In this document: positions 6,237 to 52,238 of the stretch, piece by piece
Layout of the letters: each line of letters begins with the position of its first letter
Numbering within the stretch: position 1 is the first letter of the stretch
Notes under the pieces: model-generated
The model's database searches: none
The model's input: the letters and a program-made list of their open reading frames with translations, nothing else
What the model was told of the DNA's origin: nothing
Assembly (NCBI GenBank): GCA_947085655.1
Contig: CAMTXH010000009.1
Location: forward strand, 3,738-67,737
Direction of reading: 5' to 3'
DNA length: 64,000 bases
Origin: an uncultured Omnitrophica bacterium
Lineage (GTDB): Bacteria; Omnitrophota; Gorgyraeia; JACQQV01
Position numbers and translations under genes: made by a program

Positions 6237-6252
6237 TGGCACAGAACTTGCG
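6237..6252 (+). promoter_or_regulatory. sigma-54 (RpoN) -24/-12 promoter TGGCAC-N5-TTGC
   Basis: TGGCACagaacTTGCg at 6237-6252 in a 340-bp AT-rich intergenic region; GG/GC spacing identical to consensus; ~100 nt upstream of the MerR-like gene and the EPS super-operon. Confidence 0.5.
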
Positions 6253-6349: not shown

Positions 6350-6532
6350 GTGAACGGAAGAATGACCATCACAGAAATGGCGAGAAAGGTCGGGATTACG
6401 CCGAAGACGCTCATGCGATGGGAAAAATTGGGAAAAATCAAAAGATCCAAGCGGGACTGGCGCGGCTGGCGCTTCTATGAAGACAACGACCTGCTTGAGA
6501 TCAAGCGCTTTTACGAGACGATTTACGAATAG
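6350..6532 (+). CDS. MerR-family helix-turn-helix DNA-binding protein (HTH-only, 60 aa)
   Basis: SD AAGGAGG 7 nt upstream; sequence ITEMARKVGITPKTLMRWEKLGKI...RDWRGWRFYEDNDLLEIKRF matches MerR N-terminal HTH pattern (R..GYR.Y...DL..L..I). Confidence 0.55.
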   Translation: MNGRMTITEMARKVGITPKTLMRWEKLGKIKRSKRDWRGWRFYEDNDLLEIKRFYETIYE

Positions 6533-6575
6533 CGCGGCCAAATCCATTTATTTCAGGAAAGGGAGGTTTTAAGAA

Positions 6576-33822: not shown

Positions 33823-35236
33823 GAAAATTTTGATTTTTATTCTGCTTGCGGCGGTCCTTGCAGGGGGTGCGATCGGATGGAAAGTCTATGAAACGCGCCC
33901 CTGGCTTCCCGCGCTTCTCCTTCACCAGCTCTTTCAAAAAGAGCCGGCGGGCGAGGCAAAGGGCCCCGTGGACATCATCTTTGTTTTTGCGGACCATTAT
34001 GAACCGCATCATATCGCGGCGGCCGAGCGGTGGGAGAAGATATACCGCCGGCTGGCAAGCCGTCACCGGGATGCGGACGGGAAGATGCCCCAGCACACCT
34101 TTTTCTGGTACTGGTCGGATGAGGGGGACCAGAAGGGCATCGAGTATCTCAAACGGCTTGCGCATCTTTCGTACGACGGCTATGGAGAGGTAGAGCTCCA
34201 CCTCCATCATGACGATGATACCGAAGAGACGGTGAGAGTGGATTTGGAGCGGCGGATACAACTTTCCCAGAAGACCGGCGCGTTTCTCACGGCAGAGGAA
34301 GAGCCAAAGACCGCCTATGCTTTTATTCATGGCATGTGGGCGCTCGACAACTCCCGGGACGGACGTTACTGCGGAGTGAACAAAGAACTGGAGGTCCTTC
34401 GGGAAAGCGGTTGTTACGCCGATTTTACCCATTCCTCCTGGGGAACCATGAACCCGAGAATAGCGAATTCCCTCTATTATGCCAAGGATGACTCAAATCC
34501 GAAGTCCTATGATAGGGGACGAAAAGTGGAAGTGGGCGGAGAGCCGTGGGGAGATCTTTTGATTTTCATGGGGCCCAGTGTCCTTTCTTTTGAGAACGGC
34601 CGATTCTATTACGACCATGGGGATGTGACCCTGGAGGAACTTCCGACTCCCGACCGGATCCGCCGCTGGGTCCGCACAGCCATTCATGTTCAGGGGAGGC
34701 CCGAATGGGTTTTTGTGAAGGTCTTCACCCACGGAACCATCGCCCGGGATCATGAAGCGCTTCTCGGGAAGTGGGCAGAGCGGATGTATCAAACCCTCGA
34801 GACCCATTATAACGACGGAAAGCGGTACCGGCTCCACTATGCCTCCTCACGGGAGGCCTACAATATCCTGAAGGCGGCGGAGGCGGGACATTCCGGAAAT
34901 CCGAATGACTTCCGGGATTTTGTGATTGTTCCCTACGCGAACCAGAAAATTCTCGCCTCGATCCCCTATCAGCTTGTGACCTATTCTCCGGAGCGTGTGG
35001 AACTGATTCCGGCGGGCGGGGAGGGAAACTTCCGGTTTAAAGAAGGTTCGGTGGAGGAGGTTCAGGGGGACTTCTCGCGAATCGTGATTGTGAATCCCTT
35101 TGAGGCGGAGCCGGACCTCCGGTTCGAGGGAGGAGGAACCGCGTGGGTCAAACTCCGGGACCGGACAGAGCCGTTTCAGGTGGTACTGGAAGAAGGAGCG
35201 GAAAAGACGGTAAGAGTTGAGGGGAGCCAGCCGTGA
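33815..35236 (+). CDS. membrane-anchored hypothetical protein, His-rich, possibly a metal-dependent carbohydrate-active domain
   Basis: N-terminal TM (ILIFILLAAVLAGGAIGW) then soluble domain with FADHYEPHH / LHLHHDDD clusters; family not assignable by eye. Confidence 0.45.
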   Translation: MIKKILIFILLAAVLAGGAIGWKVYETRPWLPALLLHQLFQKEPAGEAKGPVDIIFVFADHYEPHHIAAAERWEKIYRRLASRHRDADGKMPQHTFFWYWSDEGDQKGIEYLKRLAHLSYDGYGEVELHLHHDDDTEETVRVDLERRIQLSQKTGAFLTAEEEPKTAYAFIHGMWALDNSRDGRYCGVNKELEVLRESGCYADFTHSSWGTMNPRIANSLYYAKDDSNPKSYDRGRKVEVGGEPWGDLLIFMGPSVLSFENGRFYYDHGDVTLEELPTPDRIRRWVRTAIHVQGRPEWVFVKVFTHGTIARDHEALLGKWAERMYQTLETHYNDGKRYRLHYASSREAYNILKAAEAGHSGNPNDFRDFVIVPYANQKILASIPYQLVTYSPERVELIPAGGEGNFRFKEGSVEEVQGDFSRIVIVNPFEAEPDLRFEGGGTAWVKLRDRTEPFQVVLEEGAEKTVRVEGSQP

Positions 35237-38200: not shown

Positions 38201-39912
38201 GCGATCCGATGAAGGACGGAATGCTCTTTGAAAAATTCACGTACGATCGTGTCCCTCCTCTTTTGTACAACACCCCTTACCTCTTCGGAGTCAGAAATCC
38301 AAAACTCCTTGAGGCGTACCGGAAGGCGATGGCAGAGGAACCGGAAGTTCACCCAAAGACAGGTTACACCCTCTTTTTTGCCTCCCCGTTGGAGCGGGTT
38401 TTCCGAGACACACCCGTTTCAAAACTCCAAAGGGCGAATCCGATTCAAATCGCCTTGGCGGTCAACGAATCCGAATCGTATCAAATTGTCCTTGCGGCAG
38501 GCGGGGAAGATCTGAAAGGCGTTCGACTTGACGCCGGTCCCCTTATTCATCAAGACGGCATCTCTGTCATCGGACAGAATCAGATCCGTCTTCACCCTGT
38601 CGGCTATGTCCCGGTGAAGAAATCGGATCATCTCAAAGAACTGGAAGGGCTGGTGCCGGATCCGCTTTTACCGATGGAGCCCTTTGAGGTCAAGAAGGGA
38701 ACCCTTCAACCGGTTTGGGTCACTGTCACCGCCCCTCCCGGAACGCTTCCCGGTGAATACGAAGGTTCGCTGACGCTCTCTTCCGAAAATGCTCCCTTCC
38801 AAAAGATCGCCCTGCGGGTGCGGGTGTGGGCCTTTGAGCTGCCGAAACAGCCGCATCTTAAGACCGCTTTCGATTTTTACCGGAGCCGGCTCGTTCAGGC
38901 ATACGAGAGTTTTTTTCCGGAGTGGTGGGAGAAGTGGAAAGGAACTGTCGGGAAACTCGAGGAGCGGTATTTTGAGGCGATGCTCCGATACCGGATTTCA
39001 CCCGTTCTCAATATTGATCCCGCGCGCCGGGAGGATATCCGGAAGGTCCTTCGCCTCCGGATGCAGGGACTCAATGCGTTCGCCATCGGTCCTTACAGCG
39101 GCAGTCACGGAAACAACTGGCCGGATGACCTGACCCAGGTTATTCCACGCTACCGCGAATACGGACGGTTTCTCCGGGATTACGGCCTTTTGGAGGACGC
39201 GTATCTTTATACCTATGACGAGCCGAAGGCGGGGACGGAAAAGGTGGCCACCGTCTCCCGGGCCGTCCACGAAGCGGACCCCGGATTAAAGAATCTTGTG
39301 GCATTCCATCAGCCCTTCCGTTTCGAGGAGGAGCAGGAATGGTTTCGGGATATCGATATTGTTTGCATCCGGAATGTGATTTTTGACCCGAAAGAGGCGG
39401 AGAAGATTCGAAAAGCAGGGAAGGAACTTTGGATTTACTGCTCCGGCCCCTCTTTTCCGTATCCGACCTTTGTGATTGATTATCCGACGATGGCATACCG
39501 GATTCTCCCCTGGATGTGCTGGAAATACAATGTCTCCGGCCTTCTCTACTGGTGTGTCAATTTCTGGACGAAGAATCCGTATCTTGACCCGGTGAATACC
39601 CAGTGGGAGCAGAACGGAAACGGGTCCCTTTTTTACCCCGGACCGGAAGGGCCGGTCGGCTCGATTCGGCTTGAGATTATCCGGGACGGGATTGAGGATT
39701 ATGACATGCTGGCGATTCTCTCCGAGCGGCTGAAGGGAGCGAGGTCGGACGGGAGCGTCCTCCCAGCGGTCCTCCGGCAGGCGGAGGATGTCCTGCTTCA
39801 GGCGGAGCACCTCACCCCCTCGATGGAGAAATACCCCCAAGATCCGGAAACTCTTCTTTCTTTGCGGGAGAAAATCGCCGAAGCGATTCAATCCCTCGGA
39901 GGGAACCGATGA
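35233..39912 (+). CDS. very large (1559 aa) secreted/anchored multi-domain protein; C-terminal region resembles DUF4091/GH123-like glycoside-hydrolase-associated domain
   Basis: N-terminal signal/anchor (WFGLVILVVLLIGLGL); central Trp/Gly-rich region (WGWHPEGRWGWFNCEG) resembling heparinase-II/III-type (alpha/alpha)-toroid proteins; C-terminal PYPTFVIDY...LLYWCVNFW motif like DUF4091. Confidence 0.55.
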   Translation: MKKWFGLVILVVLLIGLGLRSPFFKKGKELPEFGRTAGEFVLGDFESEEALKNWEAKGVLVFLTEQYAVRGRHSASLNYSDDGNPVFALEQYFRTHEQARDWRPYEELLFTVFNPGQTKERIGLQVKDGSSRRYKEDIVIPANSALSHRLPMKKIAPFVDLRDIAQLNFFRWDPKKTAVFFLDDVRLIPQPQEAPKKEGKTTEAFSFDGSIRPTSPNAVSGQLFHRYAEKWEVTENGETFLRIPLRVAQDQSFLFEGTPVSGGIPFPYGLLKATTSFKLRTAGGTELPIQIRPLAFWEDGSVKWLHVNTEGTARAADQGLFFEIHKSPPSKPNETPLKVTQDSGQMTVVTGPLKFSVNKAKFTLLEEVFLDRNGDGQFSPEEKVAQGGDLFIRHRDEMFRSSLSRHYTLAVEEIGPLRVTLKASGWFTNESGRPFCQYEVRIQAFSGKSDIRLFHTLIYTGYPANRYHHEYENVKLPENETIEEIGIEQFISEKGIGRYQVGLPEKALTGTFQKPLVLSQLKADGFQLNQGEKTLHQGEKALGWLHAASESFGVTVNVRDFWQQYPKEIHLDPAGKLTVSLWPRSAGVLNLETGPAAEGPDAVARGSAFGLAKTHELTFSYHPGWVDPQTLHPKLSLWQHPPLLHSSPEWVYATYALGSIGPYSPLLEEEELLKRLFDWAARQPERFGWYGMLDYGDTLFWYRKEGYDKSYPDWGWHPEGRWGWFNCEGVGTHTGALFQFIRTGDYRYFAFGEASARHIMDVDTIHYDTVANDPRLREKIIGDHSRVGAMHRHNANHWGGRADEASHTHPFGFLLYYYLTGNERALEVAKEVGSYFLGRPITYTRHPDIAPQRAIANVLWGDVLLYEATRKERFKKEADHWAALFVNGQREDGGWGENYNPQLGTWDHEAGMRFMIFHTLPALIAYHRLTGSPEVEQAIIKGTEHLMAHEDYLPFFDSLAYAYELTGEVRYLDEARRRLSEQVAAQDRSGDPMKDGMLFEKFTYDRVPPLLYNTPYLFGVRNPKLLEAYRKAMAEEPEVHPKTGYTLFFASPLERVFRDTPVSKLQRANPIQIALAVNESESYQIVLAAGGEDLKGVRLDAGPLIHQDGISVIGQNQIRLHPVGYVPVKKSDHLKELEGLVPDPLLPMEPFEVKKGTLQPVWVTVTAPPGTLPGEYEGSLTLSSENAPFQKIALRVRVWAFELPKQPHLKTAFDFYRSRLVQAYESFFPEWWEKWKGTVGKLEERYFEAMLRYRISPVLNIDPARREDIRKVLRLRMQGLNAFAIGPYSGSHGNNWPDDLTQVIPRYREYGRFLRDYGLLEDAYLYTYDEPKAGTEKVATVSRAVHEADPGLKNLVAFHQPFRFEEEQEWFRDIDIVCIRNVIFDPKEAEKIRKAGKELWIYCSGPSFPYPTFVIDYPTMAYRILPWMCWKYNVSGLLYWCVNFWTKNPYLDPVNTQWEQNGNGSLFYPGPEGPVGSIRLEIIRDGIEDYDMLAILSERLKGARSDGSVLPAVLRQAEDVLLQAEHLTPSMEKYPQDPETLLSLREKIAEAIQSLGGNR

Positions 39913-41830: not shown

Positions 41831-42621
41831 AACTCGCTGCGATCGGAATTCTTTTCCTCTTTGCCTATTTTCCGACGCTCGTTTGGATGGCGGACCGTTG
41901 GATGGCGGCCGATTCCTATTACGGGCACGGTTTTCTGATTCCGCTTGTGAGCGCCTACCTTGTTTGGCGCAAGCGGAAGGAAATTGCGCAACTTCCGAAG
42001 GAATCTTCAAGCTGGGGGCTTGTTCTCCTTGTCGTCGGGCTTCTCATTCATCTGGCGAGCGCTATGGTCAAGGTCTATTTCACCTCCGGTTTCTCGATCC
42101 TGATTTCCGTTTCGGGGCTGGTTCTCTATCTGGGGGGAAAACGGCTGCTCCGGGCGGTCGGGTTTCCGATTTTCATGCTCTTTTTCATGATTCCCTTTCC
42201 GCTCGTTGTCATCGGAACGGCGGTCCTCCGGTTGAAACTGTTTGCGGCGATGTGCGCCACCGTGATTCTTCATCTGATCGGGATGCCGGCAGTCCAGCAG
42301 GGAAGCACCATCTTTATGCGGAACGCCACCGTTCTGGTGGATGATCCGTGCAGCGGACTCCGTTCGCTCCTTTCGCTTCTGACACTCGGGGTTTTGTTTG
42401 CCTATCTGAAGCAGGCCCGACTTTCAAGACGGGTCCTCTTTTTCCTTTCTTCCATCCCGATCGCGATTTTTGCAAATGTCATCCGGATTGTGATGCTGGC
42501 CGGGATCGCCGACATTTACGGGGTGGATGTGGCATTGAAATTCTTCCATGACTTCTCCGGTTTTGTGGTATTCGGGCTTGCCCTCGGGGGATTGTCACTC
42601 GTCGGGAGAGTTCTTCAATGA
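41827..42621 (+). CDS. epsH: exosortase (EpsH/Xrt family transpeptidase)
   Basis: Likely GTG start at 41827 overlapping upstream TGA (ORF-track start 41617 is an upstream extension); 8 TM helices; invariant exosortase motifs DDPCSGLRSL (Cys) and FANVIRIVML (Asn/Arg). Confidence 0.8.
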   Translation: MKLAAIGILFLFAYFPTLVWMADRWMAADSYYGHGFLIPLVSAYLVWRKRKEIAQLPKESSSWGLVLLVVGLLIHLASAMVKVYFTSGFSILISVSGLVLYLGGKRLLRAVGFPIFMLFFMIPFPLVVIGTAVLRLKLFAAMCATVILHLIGMPAVQQGSTIFMRNATVLVDDPCSGLRSLLSLLTLGVLFAYLKQARLSRRVLFFLSSIPIAIFANVIRIVMLAGIADIYGVDVALKFFHDFSGFVVFGLALGGLSLVGRVLQ

Positions 42622-43250
42622 AAAAAAACTGGGTTGTGAGCACCATTTTATTCATCATCGTCGGAGCGATCTCTCTCCACTTTTATCAGATTCAACGCGC
42701 CACCCACGATACAAGGGATATCCGGAAGATTCCGATGGAACTGGGCGGGTGGCAGGCAAGGAATATCCAAGTGACGGATCGGGAGTATGAGGTGCTTGAG
42801 ACGCGAAATCTGATTTCCCGCGAATACCGGAATGGAAAGGGAGAGTCGATGAGTCTTTTTGTCATCTATTCCGAGACAAACCGCCGCGTCTGCCATCCGC
42901 CGGTCGTCTGCCTGATCGGAAGCGGCGCTACCGTCAACCAAAGCGGCCGCTCATTTCTTTCGTTCCCGGAAAAGGAAATTCCGGTCAACACCCTGATGGT
43001 TCAATCCGGAAATCAAAAAAATCTGGTTCTCTATTGGTATATGCTGGATGAATCCTTCACGGAGGATTACTTCACCCAGCAGTTTCGATGGGTCATCCGC
43101 CAAGCGATGGGTCACCGGGGAGGAGGTGCGCTCATCCGCGTCGTGACGCCCCTCCATGGAACGGAAGAAGAGACGCTCGAACGGGTAAAGGAATTTATCC
43201 AAGAACTCCTTCCGCATCTGACAGAAGAAAAGAAGGTCCGCTCGACCTAA
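42618..43250 (+). CDS. epsI: EpsI-family exosortase-associated protein
   Basis: 210 aa, N-terminal TM anchor then periplasmic domain, immediately downstream of and overlapping the exosortase gene (ATGA), as in EpsH/EpsI pairs. Confidence 0.7.
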   Translation: MKKNWVVSTILFIIVGAISLHFYQIQRATHDTRDIRKIPMELGGWQARNIQVTDREYEVLETRNLISREYRNGKGESMSLFVIYSETNRRVCHPPVVCLIGSGATVNQSGRSFLSFPEKEIPVNTLMVQSGNQKNLVLYWYMLDESFTEDYFTQQFRWVIRQAMGHRGGGALIRVVTPLHGTEEETLERVKEFIQELLPHLTEEKKVRST

Positions 43251-43436
43251 TCTTCCGTGTTGTATTTAGGGTCAACATGTCGAATTGCTTAAACAGATTA
43301 AATCTGGACTGTCCTGGATAACCCTGGACAAACCCGGACAGTCTCTGAATAGAGGGAAAATTAATGCATAACTTATTTCATTATAAAGAGTTACAGACAT
43401 GACAAATAGAAAAATATTAATTCCTTTACGGGAGGT

Positions 43437-43452
43437 TGGCATGGAGATTGCG
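43437..43452 (+). promoter_or_regulatory. sigma-54 (RpoN) -24/-12 promoter TGGCAT-N5-TTGC
   Basis: TGGCATggagaTTGCg at 43437-43452; consensus spacing; ~60 nt upstream of ATG 43514; preceded at 43304-43343 by four CTGGAC-like repeats with 10-11-bp phasing. Confidence 0.55.
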
Positions 43453-43513
43453 TATATTCAATAGATGCGGCAGACTTTCTATGCCTTGTTTGGACCAAGA
43501 TTAAACAAATAAA

Positions 43514-44332
43514 ATGAAGCCATTCAGGAAAACCCAAAGCGCTAGAGGAAGAATTCAACTTACCGTGACTCTCGGAGTAGCACTTCTTGTGCTCGTGGGT
43601 CTTGCAACGGTTTGGTGCGTCAACTCCTTTTCAGACACCGGTGCATTCGGAGCACAACACAAGATGCCGGTTCCTGAACCGAGCAGTGCTATTCTTCTTG
43701 GCGGAGGCGGCATTTTGGGCGCCATCGTGCGGTTTGCCCGGCGCCGTTTTCAGGAGTTCAAACGGGCTTTCGATCTCTTCTTTGCATCCCTGGGTCTTTT
43801 GGTCTCCCTTCCGATTCTGGCGCTCATCGGCCTCTGGATTAAGTGTATCTCAGCCGGGAGCGTTTTCTTCACACAGGAACGGGTCGGAAAGGATGGCGCG
43901 CTTTTTACGATTTATAAACTCCGGACGATGCATAACGGTGCGGAGGCCGAAACCGGGCCGGTTTGGGCCCGGGAGAACGACCCGCGCCTGATTCCTTTCG
44001 GGAAGTGGATTCGGAGACTTCACCTGGATGAGATTCCGCAGCTTTGGAATGTTCTCCAGGGAGAGATGAGTCTGATCGGACCCAGACCCGAGCGCCCCGA
44101 ATTTGTCCAAGAGCTCCAAAGAGCCATCCCGGATTACGAAAAGCGTTTAAAGGTGAAGCCGGGGATCACGGGACTCGCGCAGGTCTGGCACAAATATGAC
44201 GAAACCCTTCAGGATGTCCGGAAGAAGATTAAATACGACCTTCTCTACATCCGAAAGATGTGCCTCTGGGTGGACTTGCGGATTCTGGCGAATACGGTCC
44301 TTGTGGTGTTGACCGGAAGGGGGGCACGCTAA
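43514..44332 (+). CDS. priming polyprenyl-phosphate sugar-phosphotransferase (Bac_transf/WbaP-C-terminal type) carrying an N-terminal signal-peptide + PEP-CTERM-like module
   Basis: aa 83-272: KRAFDLFFASLGLLVSLPILALIG...FTQERVG...KLRTM...PGITGLAQV = Bac_transf catalytic domain. aa 1-80: hydrophobic signal-like helix then VPEPSSAILLGGGGILGAIVRFARRRF, same pattern as the three PEP-CTERM tails downstream. Confidence 0.75.
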   Translation: MKPFRKTQSARGRIQLTVTLGVALLVLVGLATVWCVNSFSDTGAFGAQHKMPVPEPSSAILLGGGGILGAIVRFARRRFQEFKRAFDLFFASLGLLVSLPILALIGLWIKCISAGSVFFTQERVGKDGALFTIYKLRTMHNGAEAETGPVWARENDPRLIPFGKWIRRLHLDEIPQLWNVLQGEMSLIGPRPERPEFVQELQRAIPDYEKRLKVKPGITGLAQVWHKYDETLQDVRKKIKYDLLYIRKMCLWVDLRILANTVLVVLTGRGAR

Positions 44333-44845
44333 ATGTCCCGGTACCGTGGCCTGGGGAGTCTGAGTTCAACCGCTTTTAAGGCGCTCATCATTAATACACT
44401 CTTTCTCGGCATTGCCCTTGCGGCGGGAAGCGGCCTTTTTTACGTTTATCACGATAAAAATTCGCCGGAGAGTTTTTACAAGAATGAAGGATACACCCTT
44501 CTCACGGGCGAAATGACCAAGAAAGACAAAGCCGTTTGGGAGGGGCAGGAAAATATCTTCGGCGCCACAACGTATCTTGCAACCGGTGACAATTTGCGGA
44601 ACCCGAATTTTGACAATGCGGAGACAAGGGAATTCATCCAACGCCAGGATACCCGGCATGCAACGCAGGTCCCGATTAAGGCGATTCAATTTTTCGGATC
44701 CTCAATGACGGTCACCTTCGAAAACGGTTGCGAGGTGACCCGGACATGGGATATCGCCCGGAGCCCCGGGAAGATCTATCCAACTCGTAAAATCACGGAG
44801 GAGTGCGATGATGCAAAACGACAGGAACTTCCGCCTTATTCATAA
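44333..44845 (+). CDS. membrane-anchored hypothetical protein
   Basis: 170 aa; TAAATG overlap with upstream gene; single N-terminal TM (ALIINTLFLGIALAAGSGLFYVY). Confidence 0.5.
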   Translation: MSRYRGLGSLSSTAFKALIINTLFLGIALAAGSGLFYVYHDKNSPESFYKNEGYTLLTGEMTKKDKAVWEGQENIFGATTYLATGDNLRNPNFDNAETREFIQRQDTRHATQVPIKAIQFFGSSMTVTFENGCEVTRTWDIARSPGKIYPTRKITEECDDAKRQELPPYS

Positions 44846-45590
44846 TCCATACGTCATTCTGATTGCCGTTACGGCACTCATGTTTGGATGGGCCGTTCAG
44901 GCGGAGGCGTCCATCTTTCACCAGATTCCGTTTGAATTCATCTCCTTCTCAGAAGGAGACCTTGATTATTCGGATTCGGCCGATGACAACAACACCGGCT
45001 CGACACCTCTCGGGTTTTCCGTCACGCTGGGAGGAGCGACCTACAGCTACTTTGACATGGATTCAAACGGCTATATTCAACTGTTAACCGGGGCGGCACA
45101 TTCTCCCACCGAATACGGTTACGGCGGAATTGATGATTTGATCGATGAAGATCCGACATCCACCTATCTTCTTTCGGCCTACGATGACCTCTCTTCTTAT
45201 GATTACGGCTTTTACGGATATAAAGTCTATGGGGACATGGTCATTTTTTACTATGATACCGAGACCTATGACGATGGGGGCTACGAGCTTTTGAATAATT
45301 TTGAAGTCATTCTTTACGATGACGGTCGTGTCCAGTGGAACTTCAACTACGCCGATTACGACATTTATGGTTATGATCTCTACTCGGGCCTCTATTTCGG
45401 GAACACGGAAACGCGCCATGAGTTATACCGGGAGACGATTCCTCAAAGGGAGTCGTGGATCTACGGACCGCATTCACACGAGGTGATTCCGGAACCGAGC
45501 TCTCTGGGACTTTTGGGAATGGGCCTTTTGGGCCTGTGGAAGTATCGTAAGAAGACAGGAAGCAATGAACACCTTGCAAATCTGTCATGA
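44808..45590 (+). CDS. PEP-CTERM sorting-domain protein, Asp/Tyr-rich
   Basis: SD GGAGGAG; signal peptide (VILIAVTALMFGWAVQA); Asp/Tyr-rich mature region; C-terminal VIPEPSSLGLLGMGLLGLWKYRKK followed by an 11-aa tail. Confidence 0.75.
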   Translation: MMQNDRNFRLIHNPYVILIAVTALMFGWAVQAEASIFHQIPFEFISFSEGDLDYSDSADDNNTGSTPLGFSVTLGGATYSYFDMDSNGYIQLLTGAAHSPTEYGYGGIDDLIDEDPTSTYLLSAYDDLSSYDYGFYGYKVYGDMVIFYYDTETYDDGGYELLNNFEVILYDDGRVQWNFNYADYDIYGYDLYSGLYFGNTETRHELYRETIPQRESWIYGPHSHEVIPEPSSLGLLGMGLLGLWKYRKKTGSNEHLANLS

Positions 45591-45613
45591 AAAACAAGGA
45601 GGAGGTAAGTAGC

Positions 45614-46297
45614 ATGAGTAAACCGAAGTTAGTAGTTTTAGCAGCGGCAGTCCTTCTGCTCTTGAGCGGAGGGAATGCCCTTGCTGTCCCGAGCATCGAC
45701 GGAACGATCGGTCCCGGGGAATGGAGCGCAGGCCTGATCATCAATTCGTTCGATCCGAACGAAGGCGGGATCCCGGATGATTATGACATCTTCCGGGTCG
45801 CGATGATTCAGGAGAATTCCGGCGGGTCGGATGACGGGCTCTATATCCTCATCGACCTTTACGGATCGCCGACTTTCACCTCACTGGATGAGACGTCGCC
45901 ACCGGCGCCTGTCTCCTACAGGACGGCAATTGATGTCAACCGGGACGGAGATTTCAATGATGCGGTGGATCGCATCTTCGATTTCCGCGCCACCGGATTC
46001 ACCGTCTTTGACGGAACCGGGACAGCGATTGCCGACACCGGCACAGAGTTCATTTTGGGTCCGGATGTGGTGGAGTTCTTTATTCCGGAAGATATGCTCG
46101 GAGGACCTTTCTCGTCCTTCGACACCTTCACGCGTCTGGATAACGGCGGTGAGCCTGCAGACGACCGGGTGCCGGATAGAGGGTTCGACACTACGATTCC
46201 GGAGCCGGCCACCATGGCCCTTTTTGGTTCAGGGCTTTTGGGGGCTTTGGGATACGCCAGAAGGAAATCTGCAATGAAGCCGTACCACAAACCTTAA
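45614..46297 (+). CDS. PEP-CTERM sorting-domain protein
   Basis: SD AAGGAGGAGG then ATG 45614 (ORF-track start 45587 would place the SD inside the ORF); signal peptide LVVLAAAVLLLLSGGNALA; C-terminus TIPEPATMALFGSGLLGALGYARRKS. Confidence 0.75.
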   Translation: MSKPKLVVLAAAVLLLLSGGNALAVPSIDGTIGPGEWSAGLIINSFDPNEGGIPDDYDIFRVAMIQENSGGSDDGLYILIDLYGSPTFTSLDETSPPAPVSYRTAIDVNRDGDFNDAVDRIFDFRATGFTVFDGTGTAIADTGTEFILGPDVVEFFIPEDMLGGPFSSFDTFTRLDNGGEPADDRVPDRGFDTTIPEPATMALFGSGLLGALGYARRKSAMKPYHKP

Positions 46298-46314
46298 GCA
46301 GACGGTTTGTGAGA

Positions 46315-46342
46315 CCCGCCTTTCGTGCATCGAAAGGCGGGG
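46315..46342 (+). other. perfect 11-bp stem / 5-nt loop hairpin without U-tract between PEP-CTERM genes
   Basis: CCCGCCTTTCG tgcat CGAAAGGCGGG; no poly-U on either strand. Confidence 0.4.
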
Positions 46343-46361
46343 AAAGGACAAATCTGCAGAG

Positions 46362-46703
46362 ATGAAAAATGTAACGCTTCTTCTAATCCCTCTTCTCATA
46401 CTGTTTCTCTCCGGATGCGAAGGGGCAACAACGGCTGCCTTGACCCTCTTGGGCGCCAGCTCCACTATCGTCGAAGACCTGACCAAGGATGACGGCGGGG
46501 TCGGTGGCGGTGGAGGTTCAGGCGATACCGGTGATACCGGAGGCGGCGGCGGAGGGGGAGGCGGCGGGGATGTTCCCCCGACGCTGGCCCACTCGCCGGA
46601 GCCGGGCTCTATGCTCCTTTTTGGGAGCGGCCTTTTGGGAGCGGCCCTTTCCCGTTCACGATTCCGAGGGATCCTTAGGAGAAGACGTAAGACAATATCA
46701 TAA
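46362..46703 (+). CDS. small PEP-CTERM sorting-domain protein with lipoprotein-like signal and poly-Gly spacer
   Basis: 113 aa; LLILFLSGC lipobox-like signal; GGVGGGGGSGDTGDTGGGGGGGGGGD; C-terminus SPEPGSMLLFGSGLLGAALSRSRFRG. Confidence 0.7.
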   Translation: MKNVTLLLIPLLILFLSGCEGATTAALTLLGASSTIVEDLTKDDGGVGGGGGSGDTGDTGGGGGGGGGGDVPPTLAHSPEPGSMLLFGSGLLGAALSRSRFRGILRRRRKTIS

Positions 46704-46879
46704 GGTAGATAAAATCTACCTCCTCCTTGTGGCTTGTGTTCCAGAACCCATGGCGCAACTCATCTCGGCTCTGGAAAAAGGATAGAGTGGGAGTAGGAAA
46801 TAACCTATTCAAAATAAAAGAGTTATAGAAGTGAGGTAGGTGAGTTGCGTTAATGGGGGAACGCAGGAATGGTTTGACA

Positions 46880-46910
46880 GGGGTAGAGAAATCTACCCCT
46901 GTATTTTTTT
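46880..46910 (+). terminator. rho-independent terminator ending the sigma-54 PEP-CTERM operon
   Basis: GGGGTAGA gaaa TCTACCCC followed by TGTATTTTTTTC. Confidence 0.65.
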
Positions 46911-46946
46911 CTTGACATCTGATGCCCACATCTATAAACTAAACCC

Positions 46947-47807
46947 ATGTCTAAAAAATTAAACACATTAATTGATATCTGGTATGATACAGCAGGACTC
47001 ATCAAAAAATATCCCCACCTCCTTTTTCCCCTCACCATTGTTGCCTTCCTAGAAGCGCTTTGGCTTGAATTTCTCTATTTCGCCCCTTATACCTTTCTCG
47101 GTACCCTTATCCTCCCTCCGATCCGGCGTTTCCTGGGGGAATTGGCCCTCCACTATCCGGTCTATCTTCTGATCCTTCCGAGAATTTTCAATCTGGGACA
47201 GATCTTCCTTTATATTCTGATTGGAGGGATTTTGACCGGGGTGACGGTGGTTCTGGCGGAGGGGGCGAATGAGGGGAAGACCCTCTCCTTGCAAGCGGCG
47301 TGGAAAAAGATAAGGGGCCGCTGGTTTGCACTGATCCTGGCCGCCCTCTTTCTAACCCTTCTCATCCGTCTGGTCGGCACCCTGCCGATTGCGGCCCTCC
47401 GGGCCGGTTTTGCCTTCGCCGGGAGAGGGTGGTTACGGCAGGCGCTCGAATTCCTTACAGGGGCCCTTCCTTATATTCATTTCCTCCTTGGAGTTCTGGC
47501 ACAGACTTTTATCCTCTTTCTTATTCCCCTTATCGTTCTTGACAACCGGAAGTTTTTCCCGGCGATCGGAAAGGGACTCGTTCTCAGCGGGCAACATCTT
47601 CTCCGGGTGTACGCCCTTCTTTTACTTCCCCTCATCTGCTACAGTCCCATCTGGTATCTCAAGGGGAACGTGAATTTTTTGGTCCGGAAGACCCTCTATC
47701 CGGAGTCGATCCTCATTCTTTTGGCGATCGGAATTCTGGCGACCATTGTGCTCGACACCTATATTGCGGTCAGCGCCACACTCTTTTTCCTAAGGCATAA
47801 GAAATGA
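46947..47807 (+). CDS. integral membrane protein (hypothetical, ~7 TM)
   Basis: 286 aa, mostly hydrophobic helices; possible sigma-70-like -35 TTGACA (46912-46917) / -10 TATAAA (46933-46938) upstream. Confidence 0.5.
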   Translation: MSKKLNTLIDIWYDTAGLIKKYPHLLFPLTIVAFLEALWLEFLYFAPYTFLGTLILPPIRRFLGELALHYPVYLLILPRIFNLGQIFLYILIGGILTGVTVVLAEGANEGKTLSLQAAWKKIRGRWFALILAALFLTLLIRLVGTLPIAALRAGFAFAGRGWLRQALEFLTGALPYIHFLLGVLAQTFILFLIPLIVLDNRKFFPAIGKGLVLSGQHLLRVYALLLLPLICYSPIWYLKGNVNFLVRKTLYPESILILLAIGILATIVLDTYIAVSATLFFLRHKK

Positions 47808-48655
47808 AAAAGACCCTTATCTTTTTCGGGGCAATCCTGATTGTTCTCTTCGGGGTTTTGAGTCTCATCAAAACTAAAAATCCCTATGCGGCGGAGAAGC
47901 GGTTCTGGAAAGCCCGGAACGCCACCCGGAAAATCCTTTCTAATCCCGAAACAACTCCCCCCGCCCTTTTCCGGGAAAACCGGGAGGAGTACGAGGCGAT
48001 TATCCGGCAGCATCCTCCCCTGGCAAAGGAATCCCTCTTGGCTATTGCAGGGCTTTTGATTCATGAGAAGGAGTATGACGAGGCCCGGGACCTCCTCGCA
48101 GAATCGAAACAAAAGTACGCTGAGGATGCCGAGTTCGGAGCCCGTGCGCAATTTTTAGCCGGCTATTCTTATGAAAAAGAGGGGAATTGGAGAGAAGCGG
48201 TACAGGCGTATGAGGCCTTAATGGAAGCCCACATCGGGAACCGGATGGCGTTTCAGATACCGCTCTATATTGCCCGGCAGGATTTGAAGAAGGATACCCA
48301 AAGGGGCGCTGAAAGTTATGAAAAGGCGATTGCTTATTACCGACGCTTGAGCCAGGGTCCGAAGGAAAATCCGACAGCGTTCAATGCGTTGAATTACCTC
48401 TATTTGGCCTACCATGAACAACAAAAATGGGAGGAGGCGTTGGGGGTGACGGAGGAAATTGTAGTGACCTATCCGAGGGCAATGAGCGATTATGCGCTGG
48501 TGATCGAGGGACTCGGCCGAAAACTCAATCAGCCGGAGAAAGCGATTGCGGTGTTTGAATCGTTCATTCAATCCCACCCGGACCACCCGATCGTTCCCCG
48601 TTTAAAAGAGCGAATCCAAAAACTTGGAGGGAAGCGCCAAAATGTTCCTTCGTAG
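47804..48655 (+). CDS. membrane-anchored TPR-repeat protein
   Basis: N-terminal TM (LIFFGAILIVLFGVLSL) then several 34-aa TPR-like repeats (e.g. AQFLAGYSYEKEGNWREAVQAYEALMEAH). Confidence 0.6.
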   Translation: MKKTLIFFGAILIVLFGVLSLIKTKNPYAAEKRFWKARNATRKILSNPETTPPALFRENREEYEAIIRQHPPLAKESLLAIAGLLIHEKEYDEARDLLAESKQKYAEDAEFGARAQFLAGYSYEKEGNWREAVQAYEALMEAHIGNRMAFQIPLYIARQDLKKDTQRGAESYEKAIAYYRRLSQGPKENPTAFNALNYLYLAYHEQQKWEEALGVTEEIVVTYPRAMSDYALVIEGLGRKLNQPEKAIAVFESFIQSHPDHPIVPRLKERIQKLGGKRQNVPS

Positions 48656-49865
48656 ATTCCGAAAACCCCCTTCAGCCACCCCGATTCTTCAGTTTCACGC
48701 CGCCCTTGAAAAGATGAACAGAGCAGAGTCGATGGAGGCCCTTTGGGACGCGGCTTTCCAGGAAGCGATGCTTTTGACGGACGCCGAGGCGGCGTCCCTT
48801 TTTTTGTGGGATGAGGAAAAAGAAGAACTGGTCCTCAAAAGGGGATCCGGCGGCTCCCTCCCCCCTTTACCGGAAATCCGGCGGCGGATGAACGAGGGGA
48901 TTTTCACCCCTTCCTTGATGGTGATTCCGATTCTTCTTAAAGGGGAACTCAAAGGGCTTTTGAGTCTGACCGACAAAAAATCAGGAAAGCCCTTTACCCG
49001 GAGAGACCTGGAATGGACGGCCCTCCTCGGTCACTGTCTGGCATTGACCATGGAAAAAAATAGTCTCGCCGCGGAACTCAAAGGACACCGGGATGCGCTG
49101 GAGGAGAGCCGGAAAGGCGCAACACACCTTGAGGAGAAGAAACGGAAACTCGAATCGGAACTCAAAGTGTCCCAGAAGATGGCCTCCATCGGGAAACTGG
49201 CGGCCGGCATTGCCCATGAATTGAACAATCCCCTGGACGGAACCCTCCGTTATCTTCATCTTTCTCTGAGTCATTTGAGAGAGGGGGACACGGTTCGGGA
49301 GTATCTCCTGGAGGTCAAGCAGGGGCTGGACCGGATGGTGAATATCGTGAAGAACCTCCTTGCCTTTTCCCGGCGTCAGAGCATTCGGGAAAAGCGAGTT
49401 GACCTCCATGAGGCATTGAACAATGTCCTTTCAAATCTCATCGACACCTTTTTGCCATTCCGGGTCGATGTCATCAAAGCCTACCATCCCAACCTCCCTC
49501 TTCTGGTCGACAAAGGGGTCGATCAGATTTTTACAAATATCATCAAAAACGCCCTGGAAGCGATGCCGAACGGCGGTATTCTGAGGATTGCCACGATGAT
49601 GAACGAAGATGGAATTACCGTCCGGATTTCGGATACGGGAAGCGGCATTCCGAAAGAACAGAAGCGGTTTATCTTCGAACCTTTCTTCACCACAAAAGAG
49701 ATTGACAAGGGGTGCGGTTTGGGGCTGTCGATTTGTTACGAACTGATGCAGGCCTACGAAGGGCGGATTGAATTCGAAAGCGAGGAAAAGCGGGGAACGA
49801 CGTTCCTTCTCCATTTCCCGTTGAAGGTTGTTGCAAGGGAGTCCCAACTGGCCTATGCGCGGTAA
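48624..49865 (+). CDS. GAF-domain sensor histidine kinase (soluble PrsK-like partner of the sigma-54 regulator)
   Basis: GAF-like N-terminus; H-box IAHELNNPL; HATPase motifs (NALEAM, ISDTGSGIP, GCGLGLSI); true start may be ATG 48642 (GGAGGG 11 nt upstream). Confidence 0.75.
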   Translation: MEGSAKMFLRRFRKPPSATPILQFHAALEKMNRAESMEALWDAAFQEAMLLTDAEAASLFLWDEEKEELVLKRGSGGSLPPLPEIRRRMNEGIFTPSLMVIPILLKGELKGLLSLTDKKSGKPFTRRDLEWTALLGHCLALTMEKNSLAAELKGHRDALEESRKGATHLEEKKRKLESELKVSQKMASIGKLAAGIAHELNNPLDGTLRYLHLSLSHLREGDTVREYLLEVKQGLDRMVNIVKNLLAFSRRQSIREKRVDLHEALNNVLSNLIDTFLPFRVDVIKAYHPNLPLLVDKGVDQIFTNIIKNALEAMPNGGILRIATMMNEDGITVRISDTGSGIPKEQKRFIFEPFFTTKEIDKGCGLGLSICYELMQAYEGRIEFESEEKRGTTFLLHFPLKVVARESQLAYAR

Positions 49866-51252
49866 CGGTCGGATTCTGATTGCCGATGATGAGCCGTTGA
49901 TCCGGAAATCGCTGTACGAGTCCCTCCGGATGGAGGGGTACGAGGCCGAGATGGCCTCGGACGGGGAAGAGGCGCTTCAGAAAATGGCGCGGATTCCCAT
50001 CGACCTGGTGATTGCCGACATCAAAATGCCGAAACTGTCCGGGATCGATCTTCTGAAGGAAATCAAGGCAAAATATCCGGACATTCCCGTTCTTTTGATT
50101 ACGGGGTACGGGACCATCGATCAGGCGGTGGAGGCGATGCGGCTCGGCGCGGCCGATTACATCACCAAGCCGGTCACAGACGGCGAAATTCAAATCGTCA
50201 TCAAAAAACTTTTCGAACAGAAAAGTCTCATGGATGAAAATATCGCCCTCCGCCACGAGCTTGCCCAGACGGTGCGGGACCGGTTCCACGGCCTCATCGG
50301 AAAAGACGAAAAGATGCAGAAGGTCTACCGGCTGATTGAGAACATCTCCCAGACCAAGGCAACGGTTCTCATCCGGGGGGAAAGCGGCACCGGCAAGCGG
50401 CTGATCTCCCTTGCCATTCATGCCAATGACCCGGTTCGGAGGGAGAAGCCCTTTGTGGAGGTAAGTTGTGCCGCACTCCCCGAAACCCTGCTGGAAAGCG
50501 AACTGTTCGGGCATGTGAAAGGGGCTTTCACCGGGGCGATCCGGGACCGGGTGGGACGGTTTGAACTGGCGCAAGGAGGAACGATCCTCTTGGATGAAAT
50601 TGACGCCTTCTCACCGGCGCTTCAGGTGAAACTTTTGCGGGTGCTCCAGGAGGGATCCTTTGAGCGGGTCGGGGATACGAAGACCTTGCAGGTGGATGTG
50701 CGGGTGATTGCGGCAACCAATCAGGACCTCCATGAACTGATTCTGGAGGGGAGCTTCCGCGAGGATCTTTACTACCGCTTGAATGTCATTGCGATTGACC
50801 TTCCGCCCTTGCGGGAGCGGAAGGGGGACATCTCTCTTCTCGTGGACCATTTTCTTGACAAATTTTCCAAGAAAAGCAAGAAACACTTTACCGGCGTTTC
50901 GGAGAGATTTCTGAACATCCTTGAAGCGTATCACTGGCCGGGAAATGTTCGGGAACTGGAGAACGTCATTGAACGGGCCACCATTGTGGCGCAGGGAAAT
51001 GTTCTGATGGAACAGGACCTGCCGGTTCTCTTCCATCGGACACCCGCGCCCCTCCAGAATAATGCTTCCAGACCTTTGAAAGAGATGCTGGGGGAGCCGG
51101 AGAAGGACCTCATCCTGCAGACGCTTCGCGGGTGTCATTGGAACCGGAAGCGCGCGGCGGAACGGCTCGGCGTGAACCGAACCACGCTATACAACAAAAT
51201 GAAGAAATATCATCTCTTCGGAGAAAAGGGCGAACCGGTAACGCACATCTAA
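49855..51252 (+). CDS. sigma-54-dependent Fis-family response regulator (NtrC-type; PrsR-like)
   Basis: REC domain (ILIADDEP...D at ADIKMP); AAA+ sigma-54 activator ([22 protein letters not shown]); C-terminal Fis HTH ([19 protein letters not shown]); ORF-track start 49828, ATG 49855 more likely. Confidence 0.85.
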
Positions 51253-51266
51253 CGTTTGACGAATGG

Positions 51267-52238
51267 ATGGGGGTTGGAATGGCCGAGCGCGAGTTTGAAG
51301 CGGAGAGCGACAAATTGAGCAATTATATTGATCTCGAACAATGGGCCTTTATCCTGAACCGGTTTTCCGAGGTTTTGGGAGTGGATATCTACACGGTTGA
51401 CCTGAAGGGAAAAATCATGACCCGGCCCCAGCATGCGCCGAAGGGTTCGAAATTGATTGAGACCCCTTTCCAGCTGGTCCAGCGTCTCCTTCGGAAAAGC
51501 GCCGCCGCCAATACGCTTCAAGAAGAAACAGGATCTCTAGGCATTACCCATAGCTTGATTCCGATTCTGGGAGAGGGAACAGAGCCGCTCGCTTACCTGG
51601 TGGTGGGGCCGCTTGTGTTAGGGTCCAGGGCCCCCCGGGCGGAATTAGAGCGCTTTGCCAGGAAAGAGGGATGGGATCTTCTTGAATTGGAAGGGGCTTA
51701 TCAGCAACTGAAACTCTTTTCCTTTGTAGGGATGAAATCGATGCTGGACCTTTTGTCGGAAGTGTGCAACTATCTTGTTCAGCCGTCCCCCTTAAAAGAG
51801 AAGGTCGAAGAGGCGTTTTCGCAACTGGACAACTTCTTTGCCACGCTTCTGGATCTTGCCCTTCGGACCACCAAGGCCGATTCCGGATCCGTCATGATTC
51901 TTGATCCCCAATCCAAGACGCTTCGGATCCGTGCCGCTCACGGTTTGGATAAAGAAGTGGTTCGAAAGACGGAGATCAAGCTCGGGGAAGGGATTGCCGG
52001 TTGGGTGGCCAAAAAGAACCGGTCTCTGCTTCTGGGGCCCGACACAACAGTGGAGCCGGATCTCCAGCAATGTCTGAAACGGCCGAATATAGACTCTTCC
52101 ATTATCATGCCTCTCTCCCGGCAGGATCAGGTGCTGGGAGTTTTAAATATCAATAGCTATAGCGAAGACAACCGTCTCAGGGCCCAAAGTCTTGATCTTT
52201 TGACCCAATTGGCAAAATTGACGATGGTCATGGTTTGA
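51267..52238 (+). CDS. GAF-domain sensory protein (no output domain)
   Basis: C-terminal GAF fold (SGSVMILDPQSKTLRIRAAHGL...GEGIAGWV...VLGVLNINS); ORF-track start 51132 overlaps the regulator, so internal ATG 51267/51279 chosen. Confidence 0.55.
   Translation: MGVGMAEREFEAESDKLSNYIDLEQWAFILNRFSEVLGVDIYTVDLKGKIMTRPQHAPKGSKLIETPFQLVQRLLRKSAAANTLQEETGSLGITHSLIPILGEGTEPLAYLVVGPLVLGSRAPRAELERFARKEGWDLLELEGAYQQLKLFSFVGMKSMLDLLSEVCNYLVQPSPLKEKVEEAFSQLDNFFATLLDLALRTTKADSGSVMILDPQSKTLRIRAAHGLDKEVVRKTEIKLGEGIAGWVAKKNRSLLLGPDTTVEPDLQQCLKRPNIDSSIIMPLSRQDQVLGVLNINSYSEDNRLRAQSLDLLTQLAKLTMVMV

Follow-up and report, generated by a model that had tools for sequence, protein, structure and literature searches.

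Proteobacteria have PEP-CTERM genes that depend on RpoN (PMC1569441; Aquincola pepA, PMC9850573), and Haft et al. 2006 described for them motif 1, a 17-nt element ending in TTTACA that lies ~63 nt upstream of the sigma-54 motif and was reported in Proteobacteria only (PMC1569441). PilR sites of Pseudomonas aeruginosa consist of TGT-N11-ACA with GTCT elements close by (Jin et al. 1994 cited in PMC6058289; PMC8035640), and Nla28, a sigma-54 activator of Myxococcus xanthus, reportedly uses tandem imperfect direct repeats, clustered in groups of 3-5, 5′ of its promoters (PMC9765219). The control scheme considered here was previously described only in Proteobacteria and its Omnitrophota version is new; as judged from related loci, the predicted promoter-enhancer module is conserved across Candidatus Omnitrophota.

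We analyzed one 64-kb stretch of DNA from an uncultured Omnitrophota bacterium (the window), in which the predicted promoter P1, its upstream elements and its operon comprise the following features:

43278-43295, no strand assigned: 18-bp palindrome TGTCGAATTGCTTAAACA (TGT-N12-ACA), 159 bp upstream of the -24 T
43304-43344, + strand: four 10-bp units CTGGACTGTC / CTGGATAACC / CTGGACAAAC / CCGGACAGTC(T)
43369-43393, + strand: conserved AT-rich spacer motifs TAAC..ATTt and AAAGAGTTA, with columns invariant in alignment A2
43436-43452, + strand: predicted sigma-54 -24/-12 promoter P1 TTGGCATGGAGATTGCG (from sequence, weight matrix and conservation)
43465-43512, + strand: 15-codon ORF, translated MRQTFYALFGPRLNK and stop, with an ATG that is invariant in the alignment
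43514-44332, + strand: priming phosphoglycosyl transferase (Bac_transf; PF02397, 220 bits)
44333-44845, + strand: 170-aa protein with a single N-terminal hydrophobic (signal) anchor
44808-45590, 45587-46297 and 46362-46703, + strand: three PEP-CTERM proteins
46877-46910, + strand: intrinsic terminator at the operon end (stem 46877-46902, then a T run)

The near-consensus -24/-12 element was identified by sequence inspection (TGGCATggagaTTGC at 43437-43451; TGGCATGGAGATTGCG at 43437-43452); its GG (43438-39) and GC (43450-51) are separated by 12 bp, and no sigma-70-like promoter was predicted in 43251-43513. A sigma-54 weight matrix trained on relatives only scored 27.4 bits at 43437 and 28.6 bits at 6237, with a next-best match of 13.6 in the window and a maximum of 16 in shuffled windows. 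Strict-pattern and weight-matrix matches in the 64 kb were confined to these two positions; both are intergenic, on the + strand and 5′ of a + strand operon. The site at 6237 belongs to a second promoter (P2) that repeats the design of P1:

6012-6252, + strand: P2 as a whole (28.6 bits; conserved)
6012-6029, + strand: palindrome TGTCCAATAAATTCAACA
6074-6113, + strand: 10-bp array GGGATTGTCC / TAGACAATCT / TGTACAGTCC / TTTGTTGTCC
6236-6252, + strand: -24/-12 element TTGGCACAGAACTTGCG
6350 or 6362 to 6532, + strand: small MerR/HTH_17-like protein, first gene after P2
6576-7415, + strand: Wza-like polysaccharide export protein, second gene after P2

P2 is conserved in four orthologous loci (L147-L150), and its genes (6350-7415) head a + strand EPS/exosortase gene run that reaches 43250.

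Pattern counts within the window were not above chance, either for the -24/-12 pattern (3 observed vs 2.4 expected) or for the CTGGAC pair (7 vs 4.8). Such counts would fit a chance resemblance or a non-promoter function (an RNA element or N-terminal coding sequence of the transferase), with the operon transcribed by read-through or from an unrecognized promoter; several gene callers extend the transferase ORF over the promoter, and no + strand terminator follows EpsI, so that upstream read-through could also feed the P1 operon. Against this account, a strict element (counted if ≤460 bp upstream of the transferase; background rate 25 matches per 710 kb) was present upstream of the orthologous transferase gene in ~75 of 82 Omnitrophota-type loci compared with 1 of 52 unrelated transferase loci, a ~100-fold enrichment 5′ of this gene across the clade, although the related loci are not independent and the counts therefore overstate the statistical weight. 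Conservation centers on the GG/GC and TGT/ACA positions and does not follow codon positions, the design recurs at the unrelated operon of P2, and a complete sigma-54 activator is always alongside, which together make a chance or non-promoter origin extremely improbable. It is very probable that the flagged sequence is a genuine sigma-54 promoter which, with a conserved enhancer upstream, switches on the genes for the sugar-priming enzyme and for PEP-CTERM proteins of the cell surface; the comparative evidence was decisive for this judgment. The original prediction of a near-consensus RpoN promoter at 43437-43452 driving a transferase and PEP-CTERM operon is thus supported by conservation, and the matrix scan returned this promoter as one of two strong sites.

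Comparison of the loci directly shows the elements, how conserved they are, how they are spaced and that they co-occur with the kinase/activator cassette. When anchored on the -24, the 160 bp upstream aligned without gaps in six relatives (transferases 69-75% identical), and the invariant columns were located in the palindrome, the array, the spacer motifs and the -24/-12; the distance between the -24/-12 element and the repeats is fixed across related loci. In alignment A2, GTTGGCA.G and TGC of P1 were invariant, as were the TGT, the ACA and the inner T's of the palindrome. TGT-N12-ACA is the most widely conserved upstream element, is also found 5′ of P2, and occurred 59 times in 64 loci vs 3.4 ± 1.9 expected, with the N10, N11 and N13 spacings of TGT/ACA at chance level in the same loci. 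The activator may bind the palindrome at 43278-43295 as a dimer with high affinity. This palindrome had been missed by the earlier reading of this DNA, as had the second promoter and the conserved start codon after the -12.

The helically phased repeats were also confirmed as conserved at a fixed distance from the -24, with corrections to their description. Units start at 43304 (CTGGAC), 43314 (CTGGAT), 43324 (CTGGAC) and 43334 (CCGGAC) with a period of exactly 10 bp, the first three as originally placed and the fourth 1 bp before its predicted position of 43335. The array was aligned without gaps in six close relatives (invariant: GA, GTC, CC, CC, GA), and in the window its TGTC is at -128 relative to the -24 T. 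Across the family the core is not CTGGAC, as had been proposed, but TGTC(C/A) in strand-specific direct repeats (TGTC 154 vs GACA 48 occurrences; 32 expected for each) spaced exactly 10 bp, with positional peaks of TGTC at -127/-117/-107 and sharp peaks of TGTC-TGTC distance at 10, 20, 32 and 42 bp; at least 3 phased units were found in 36 of 64 loci vs 0 of 64 shuffled sequences. Neither of the two inner units of the window, which carry AACC, has the family TGTC core. The predicted outer inverted repeat is present in the window, where a perfect palindrome, GGACTGTCC (43306-14), is followed 30 bp on by the near-palindrome GGACAGTCT (43336-44), but the family in general has direct repeats instead. 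By this comparison CTGGAC is a local variant, and a GGAC-N-GTCC reading fits only the window and a few relatives (L076, L087).

The arrangement shares features with several described enhancers. Like NtrC sites at glnAp2 and other classical enhancers, it has multiple sites on one helical face >100 bp upstream, its strongest units are about three turns (30 bp) apart, and an AT-rich spacer that may take a bending protein separates enhancer from promoter; unlike glnAp2, its sites bear no relation in sequence to the NtrC consensus, direct repeats predominate over inverted ones, and the output is not nitrogen-related. The P1 enhancer resembles PilR sites at the sequence level, in that the site of an NtrC-type activator combines a TGT/ACA dyad with short GTCT/TGTC elements as at the PilS/PilR pilin promoter; compared with PilR sites, the dyad spacer is N12 rather than N11 (N11 being at chance in the present loci), up to 4-5 units are strictly 10-bp phased, and the regulated genes are for polysaccharide and PEP-CTERM proteins rather than pilin. 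Tandem direct repeats upstream of a sigma-54 promoter are shared with Nla28, whose repeat is an 8-bp GC-rich unit of variable spacing, with no palindrome and no fixed 10-bp phase reported in that source (PMC9765219).

Strictly direct, strand-specific repeats at 10 bp are unusual for dimeric Fis-type activators and would also suit a monomeric winged-helix protein. Tandem direct repeats are bound by excisionase-type winged-helix proteins, and a MerR/HTH_17-like gene of 56-60 aa is the first after P2 in 5 of 5 loci examined. The activator might accordingly occupy TGT-N12-ACA only, with another protein, for which this small MerR/excisionase-like HTH protein is the best candidate, lying head-to-tail on the array to bend DNA or modulate output in a feedback loop. 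The palindrome is near-universal, and in class B loci (about a quarter of relatives) palindrome and activator are present with no array, so the array is not required for the activator to work. We nevertheless regard a division between two proteins as rather unlikely, because nothing connects the small MerR-like protein with the array, the left half of the palindrome (TGTC/TGTT) has a core identical to the array units, and PilR and Nla28 show that one activator can serve a palindrome together with tandem elements (PMC6058289, PMC9765219). The activator encoded at 49855-51252 is the predicted binder of both palindrome and array. Its HTH residues are LYNK and N(R/K)K(K/R)AA in array-type loci and LYKK and NRNEAA in array-less loci, a difference that is confounded with phylogeny.

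Between enhancer and promoter, TAAC was found at -70..-60 in 49 of 64 loci and AGTTA peaked at -50..-40. A relaxed YAA-N4-TT[GT] pattern occurred at -85..-55 in 41 of 64 loci and the fuller IHF-like YAA-N4-TTGAW in only 9 of 64, making 43369-43393 a possible site for an IHF-like bending protein, although the window's own sequence matches weakly. Transcription from P1 is predicted to start at ~43462-43464. The 15-codon ORF has its ATG 13 nt beyond the -12 GC and stops 1 nt short of the transferase ATG, and in most relatives the MRQTFYALFGPRLNK peptide forms, in frame, the N-terminus of the transferase; a conserved start codon this close to the -12 implies a nearly leaderless mRNA.

The regulatory operon follows the terminator, in an order kept in relatives:

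46912-52238, + strand: regulatory operon as a whole
46912-46940, + strand: sigma-70-like promoter TTGACA-17-TAAACT at its start
46947-47807, + strand: polytopic membrane protein
47804-48655, + strand: TPR protein
48624-49865, + strand: soluble GAF-HisKA-HATPase histidine kinase
49855-51252, + strand: REC-AAA+(GAFTGA)-HTH_8 activator, NtrC-type
about 51267-52238, + strand: PocR-GAF protein

The activator and GAF kinase noted originally were confirmed by their domains and look cognate. From start 49855 the activator has an exact protein match in a public collection, it is complete (REC, GESGTGK, GAFTGA and HTH_8 all present), and its closest solved structures are Aquifex NtrC4 and NtrC1. Wherever a locus extends far enough, the promoter is accompanied by a GAF kinase and an NtrC-type activator, and the order exosortase-EpsI / transferase ... 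membrane protein-TPR-kinase-activator-PocR/GAF was found in every sufficiently long related locus. rpoN is not in the 64-kb window and was seen only in one relative (L004), adjoining the cassette.

Like PrsK/PrsR/PrsT, this locus places PEP-CTERM and polysaccharide genes under a -24/-12 promoter that has an activator site upstream, encodes a two-component kinase, an NtrC-type response regulator and a TPR protein nearby, and lies in an exosortase/EpsI locus. The proposed PrsK/PrsR regulatory logic fits, but membership does not: that this is a true PrsK/PrsR (PEP-CTERM box) system, with the CTGGAC half-sites and outer inverted repeat as a PrsR-type UAS, is very unlikely even with PEP-CTERM targets, an adjacent TPR protein and kinase, and TIGR02915 as the activator's second-best family match. 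That match scored 418 bits against a cut-off of 502.6 (best match: AtoC-like), and the kinase, which scored 83.5 bits against 300 for TIGR02916, is a soluble GAF-domain protein (maximum hydropathy 1.39) without the PrsK membrane architecture. PrsT was not detected in a family search of the window genes, Haft's motif 1 is absent from the sequence, and the conserved core is not CTGGAC; membership is contradicted by both regulators falling below their cut-offs and by the absence of motif 1. The locus also differs from the proteobacterial system in phylum, in its additional PocR-GAF and polytopic membrane proteins, in having TGT-N12-ACA and a 10-bp TGTC array at -160 to -95 where the latter has the PEP-CTERM box, and in targeting a priming transferase operon and an export operon rather than single PEP-CTERM genes. 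On sequence grounds, the system works like PrsK/PrsR without being a member of it.

Taken as a whole, the best explanation, which we consider probable, is that P1 is a sigma-54 promoter served by the locus's own activator on a composite enhancer within a two-promoter regulon. RNA polymerase with sigma-54 would form a closed complex on P1 that opens only once the neighboring soluble GAF histidine kinase has phosphorylated the activator (49855-51252). Assembled upstream on the palindrome (43278-43295) and the four phased units (43304-43344) on one helix face at a fixed distance from the -24, the activator would contact sigma-54 via DNA looping over the AT-rich spacer, possibly aided by a bending protein. 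The mRNA from P1, nearly leaderless, would encode the priming glycosyltransferase, the small anchored protein and the three PEP-CTERM proteins and end at the terminator (46877-46910), and P2 would drive the MerR-like gene with polysaccharide export and biosynthesis genes. Given this twin promoter, the polysaccharide/exosortase system appears to be one sigma-54 regulon with at least two promoters.

Genes of the P1 operon were annotated as predicted, and the strong terminator assigned to 46880-46910 was recovered as an 11-bp stem with 6 GC pairs followed by ATTTTTTT. The 170-aa protein (44333-44845) had no family match; each of the three PEP-CTERM proteins has a signal peptide and a C-terminal PEP-TM-basic tail. 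Residues 52-77 of the transferase form an internal PEP-CTERM-like module (TIGR02595, 18.5 bits vs a cut-off of 16), and its PEP, GGGG and RFAR.RF residues are invariant among relatives.

The 64-kb window holds one large polysaccharide/exosortase locus, assigned to a Candidatus Omnitrophota bacterium from the source names of homologues. It contains two -24/-12 promoter elements, termed P1 (upstream of the priming transferase gene) and P2 (upstream of the export operon), and its features are as follows:

6012-6029: TGT-N12-ACA palindrome of P2
6074-6113: four 10-bp units of P2
6236-6252: -24/-12 element of P2, TTGGCACAGAACTTGCG, in the intergenic stretch that precedes the MerR-like gene and export operon
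6350-43250, + strand: gene run encoding a MerR-like HTH protein, Wza-like exporter, chain-length determinant, ATPase, tyrosine kinase, flippase, many glycosyltransferases and deacetylases, Wzy-like and GH123-like proteins, exosortase and EpsI
43278-43295: palindrome TGTCGAATTGCTTAAACA, TGT-N12-ACA, first element in the EpsI-transferase gap
43304-43343: four 10-bp units, CTGGACTGTC / CTGGATAACC / CTGGACAAAC / CCGGACAGTC, followed by an AT-rich stretch
43436-43452, + strand: -24/-12 element of P1, TTGGCATGGAGATTGCG, last element of the gap
43514-44332: priming transferase, followed by a 170-aa anchored protein and three PEP-CTERM proteins
46912-46940: sigma-70-like promoter, TTGACA-17-TAAACT, directly after the terminator
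46947-47807: polytopic membrane protein, followed by genes for a TPR protein, a soluble GAF histidine kinase, a REC-AAA+-HTH_8 activator and a PocR-GAF protein

EpsI (42618-43250) and the transferase gene are separated by 263 bp, and P1 is found in this interval, intergenic and correctly oriented. Its core, TGGCATGGAGATTGCG at 43437-43452, has a single mismatch to TGGCAC-N5-TTGCW, with GG and GC 12 bp apart. The strict -24/-12 pattern was found at only two sites on either strand of the window (6237 and 43437), and a weight matrix built from relatives with the window left out gave these sites 28.6 and 27.4 bits, respectively, against 13.6 bits for the next best site in the window and a maximum of 16 bits in 30 shuffles. 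A third -24/-12-like match, at 22266, was discarded because it lies within a glycosyltransferase coding sequence and scores poorly with the matrix. Within the window the counts of the -24/-12 pattern, of the CTGGAC pair and of GGACNGTCC are at chance level, so the case for a promoter rests on comparative data. Syntenic loci were gathered through transferase homologues, a genome scan and a metagenome scan; the single-protein genome scan returned mostly unrelated transferases and just 3 Omnitrophota loci, and the unrelated set was used as controls. The 460 bp preceding the transferase gene contain a strict element in approximately 75 of the 82 Omnitrophota-type loci with enough sequence, versus 1 of 52 loci of unrelated transferases. 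Across all fetched DNA, 75/92 strict matches in Omnitrophota loci sit at the transferase-upstream position (background rate of the strict pattern: 25 matches per 710 kb). In a MAFFT alignment of the P1 region from the window and its close relatives, the GTTGGCA.G/TGC columns are invariant.

No sigma-70-like promoter was predicted in the EpsI-transferase gap. The activator encoded in the window at 49855-51252 has a GAFTGA loop. On sequence evidence, P1 is very likely a sigma-54 promoter, and it is likely to depend on an activator acting through the conserved upstream region. The original prediction had placed an RpoN promoter here, driving the priming transferase, a membrane protein and three PEP-CTERM proteins as far as a strong terminator at 46880-46910. 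The promoter coordinates were right, the named genes do follow the gap, and the first strong + strand terminator has its stem at 46877-46902, with a T run behind it.

Over the 160 bp upstream of the -24 element, six relatives with transferases 69-75% identical can be aligned with no gaps; in a seventh, the related locus L064, the alignment is off by 1 nt. Invariant positions are concentrated in TGT...ACA (43278-95), in every repeat unit, in the spacer motifs TAAC and AAAGAGTTA, at -24/-12, and in an ATG at 43465. The outer array units, GGACTGTCC and GGACAGTCT, are palindromes or near-palindromes 30 bp apart. For family-wide counts we used 64 non-redundant loci. In these the TGT-N12-ACA dyad was observed 59 times versus 3.4 expected, and dyads with N10, N11 or N13 spacers were at chance level. 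TGTC was observed 154 times versus 32 expected (48 for its complement, GACA), with positions concentrated at -127, -117 and -107 and TGTC-TGTC distances peaking at 10 (51 cases), 20, 32 and 42 bp. The array unit consensus is G-n-n-TGTC-A-T-A, and at least three phased units are present in 36/64 loci versus 0/64 shuffled controls. The four phased CTGGAC-like half-sites originally described upstream of P1 thus belong to a real array, but the fourth unit starts at 43334 rather than 43335 and the period is exactly 10 bp. CTGGAC itself is present in the window, in a CTGGAC/GGACAAACC form that is a sub-variant common to two related loci, L076 and L087, but what is conserved together with the -24/-12 element in orthologous loci is a direct repeat with the core TGTC(C/A).

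About one quarter of the loci, termed class B, carry only a TGTTG-N8-10-AACAA-type palindrome and no array; these are L096, L115, L125, L092, L137, L100, L116, L104, L106, L098, L108, L136, L107, L144, L008 and L009. Their palindrome lies at about -140, and the promoter is 100-270 bp from the transferase gene. An IHF site in the spacer was also considered and set aside: the strict consensus WATCAANNNNTTR fits some relatives well and the window poorly, and a fuller IHF-like pattern (YAA-N4-TTGAW) occurs at the conserved position in only 9/64 loci, so our claim is limited to conserved spacer motifs.

P2 shares this architecture, down to a TGTC placed exactly 128 bp ahead of the -24 T, as in P1. 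P2 is conserved in four orthologous loci, L147-L150, with the array included and the palindrome in most. Units of the two promoters are near-identical across genomes (for example, TGTCTAAGTATGTCC at P1 of L004 and TGTCTAAGAGTGTCC at P2 of L150), which points to one shared binding protein. The first gene after P2, directly before the Wza-like gene, always encodes a MerR/HTH_17-like protein of 56-60 aa (window, 6350-6532; L147, 2817-2987; L148, 2800-2970; L149, 2788-2970; L150, 2806-2976), and in several database proteins, e.g. P0183, P0201, P0206 and P0213, the HTH is fused to the exporter. This small protein may act in the regulon as a second DNA-binding factor.

The helix-turn-helix of the activator reads LYNK and N(R/K)K(K/R)AA in array-type loci and LYKK and NRNEAA in array-less loci, LYKK replacing LYNK in the recognition helix of class B activators. 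The correlation with enhancer class is suggestive, and since it is confounded with phylogeny it counts as weak support for the link. The main rival is that the array is bound by another protein, such as the small MerR/excisionase-like protein encoded behind P2, a co-factor for which the array would serve as a track. We give roughly even odds to the activator occupying the palindrome as well as the array.

Every sufficiently long related locus has the gene order transferase, PEP-CTERM, membrane protein, TPR, GAF kinase, activator, PocR-GAF. The activator carries the motifs GESGTGK and GAFTGA, and a start at 49855 gives a protein that exactly matches an entry in a public collection. The PocR-GAF protein (~51267-52238), which has no DNA-binding domain, always follows the activator, with the same arrangement in L001, L003, L004 and L064, and it belongs, like the polytopic membrane protein and the TPR protein, to a conserved five-gene regulatory cassette. 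The rpoN gene is absent from the 64-kb window; in the related locus L004 (GCA_016206785.1) it directly adjoins the cassette (18298-18801, minus strand). Autoregulation of the kinase/activator operon was rejected, as there is no sigma-54 site there and the promoter at 46912-46940 is sigma-70-like. The ATG of the 46947 gene lies just 7 nt past the -10 hexamer, and the operon looks leaderless and not sigma-54 dependent.

The prediction, made in 2006, that PEP-CTERM genes are under sigma-54 control was confined to Proteobacteria: Haft et al. described a 17-nt motif ending in TTTACA (motif 1), ~63 nt upstream of a sigma-54 motif in proteobacterial PEP-CTERM genes, whose phylogenetic profile matched PrsK, PrsR and PrsT and which they found to be common to Proteobacteria only; other phyla, in their view, must rely on motifs and regulators yet to be discovered (PMC1569441). 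RpoN dependence and a mapped start have since been reported for Aquincola pepA (PMC9850573). The original prediction had invoked PrsK/PrsR logic for the present locus. The way of working fits, but both regulators fall below the family cut-offs: the activator scores 418 bits against TIGR02915 (PrsR; cut-off 502.6), its best family match being AtoC-like at 478 bits, and the kinase, a 413-aa GAF+HisKA+HATPase protein with no hydrophobic segment, scores 83.5 bits against TIGR02916 (PrsK; cut-off 300). No PrsT-type TPR lipoprotein was found, a 283-aa TPR protein matching generic TPR, YbgF and BamD models only, and motif 1, compared by its description, shows no TTTACA at the expected place in 43300-43436 or 6100-6236. 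The locus would thus work like PrsK/PrsR systems but is not, by these sequence measures, a member of them.

Among known enhancers, the P1/P2 enhancer appears to most resemble PilR sites, which are described as a TGT-N11-ACA dyad with nearby GTCT elements (PMC6058289, PMC8035640). The units here are TGTC/TGTCT, and the architecture is similar, but the spacing is not identical, since the dyad here is N12 (59 versus 3.4 expected) and N11 is at chance (7 versus 3.4). The targets also differ, being a pilin gene for PilR and polysaccharide and PEP-CTERM genes here. Nla28 offers a precedent for tandem-repeat clusters (PMC9765219), and among solved structures Aquifex NtrC4 and NtrC1 come nearest to the activator. 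A literature search for sigma-54 or exosortase regulation in Omnitrophota returned nothing relevant.

The exosortase (PF09721, 228.8 bits; XrtA-specific score 192.7, below the cut-off of 208), EpsI (TIGR02914, 90.3 bits versus a cut-off of 42.8) and multiple PEP-CTERM substrates, with three proteins above the TIGR02595 cut-off, form an exosortase/PEP-CTERM system in one locus. The priming transferase itself scores above the TIGR02595 cut-off (18.5 bits versus 16), through an internal PEP-CTERM-like module at residues 52-77 (~43667-43744) that consists of VPEP, the glycine-rich membrane helix SSAILLGGGGILGAIV and RFARRRF and lies between the N-terminal signal-anchor helix and the Bac_transf domain. 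PEP, GGGG and RFAR.RF are invariant in the transferases of close relatives. A PEP-TM-basic pattern was present in 68/89 Omnitrophota-type loci versus 1/52 other transferases, a comparison in which the FAR[RK]RFQE scan pattern used to fetch loci biases the basic cluster of the module and not the PEP. The membrane topology of the module is that of the three co-transcribed substrates, and on this shared basis the exosortase may cleave, or dock to, the enzyme that initiates polysaccharide synthesis. We found no paper on PEP-CTERM within phosphoglycosyl transferases.

A bolder reading, which we hold to be less likely than not, is that P1 is the switch of a hitherto undescribed, phylum-wide Omnitrophota exosortase regulon whose first product is itself an exosortase client. 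If true, protein sorting would be physically coupled to glycan priming.

The analysis also highlights a priming transferase within which a putative exosortase signal is embedded. In Candidatus Omnitrophota, a phylum that is uncultured and for the most part uncharacterised, the locus supplies cis elements at fixed distances (-24/-12, TGT-N12-ACA and a phased TGTC array), a conserved cassette (soluble GAF kinase, NtrC-type activator, PocR-GAF, TPR and membrane protein) and at least two predicted target promoters, which between them serve polysaccharide export and biosynthesis, exosortase, priming transferase and PEP-CTERM substrates. These elements are defined precisely enough for function to be tested by reporters, footprinting and regulon scans, with no need for a culture.

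Only 13 nt separate the -12 GC from the invariant ATG at 43465, which would imply a nearly leaderless mRNA. [quoted passage not shown] The arrangement would reflect either such a transcript, almost without a leader, or an error of assembly or a frameshift in the window. Inside the biosynthetic operon, a 1559-aa protein with PcRGLX-like and GH123-like glycoside hydrolase domains is encoded at 35233-39912 and occupies the same place in the relatives L001, L004 and L063.
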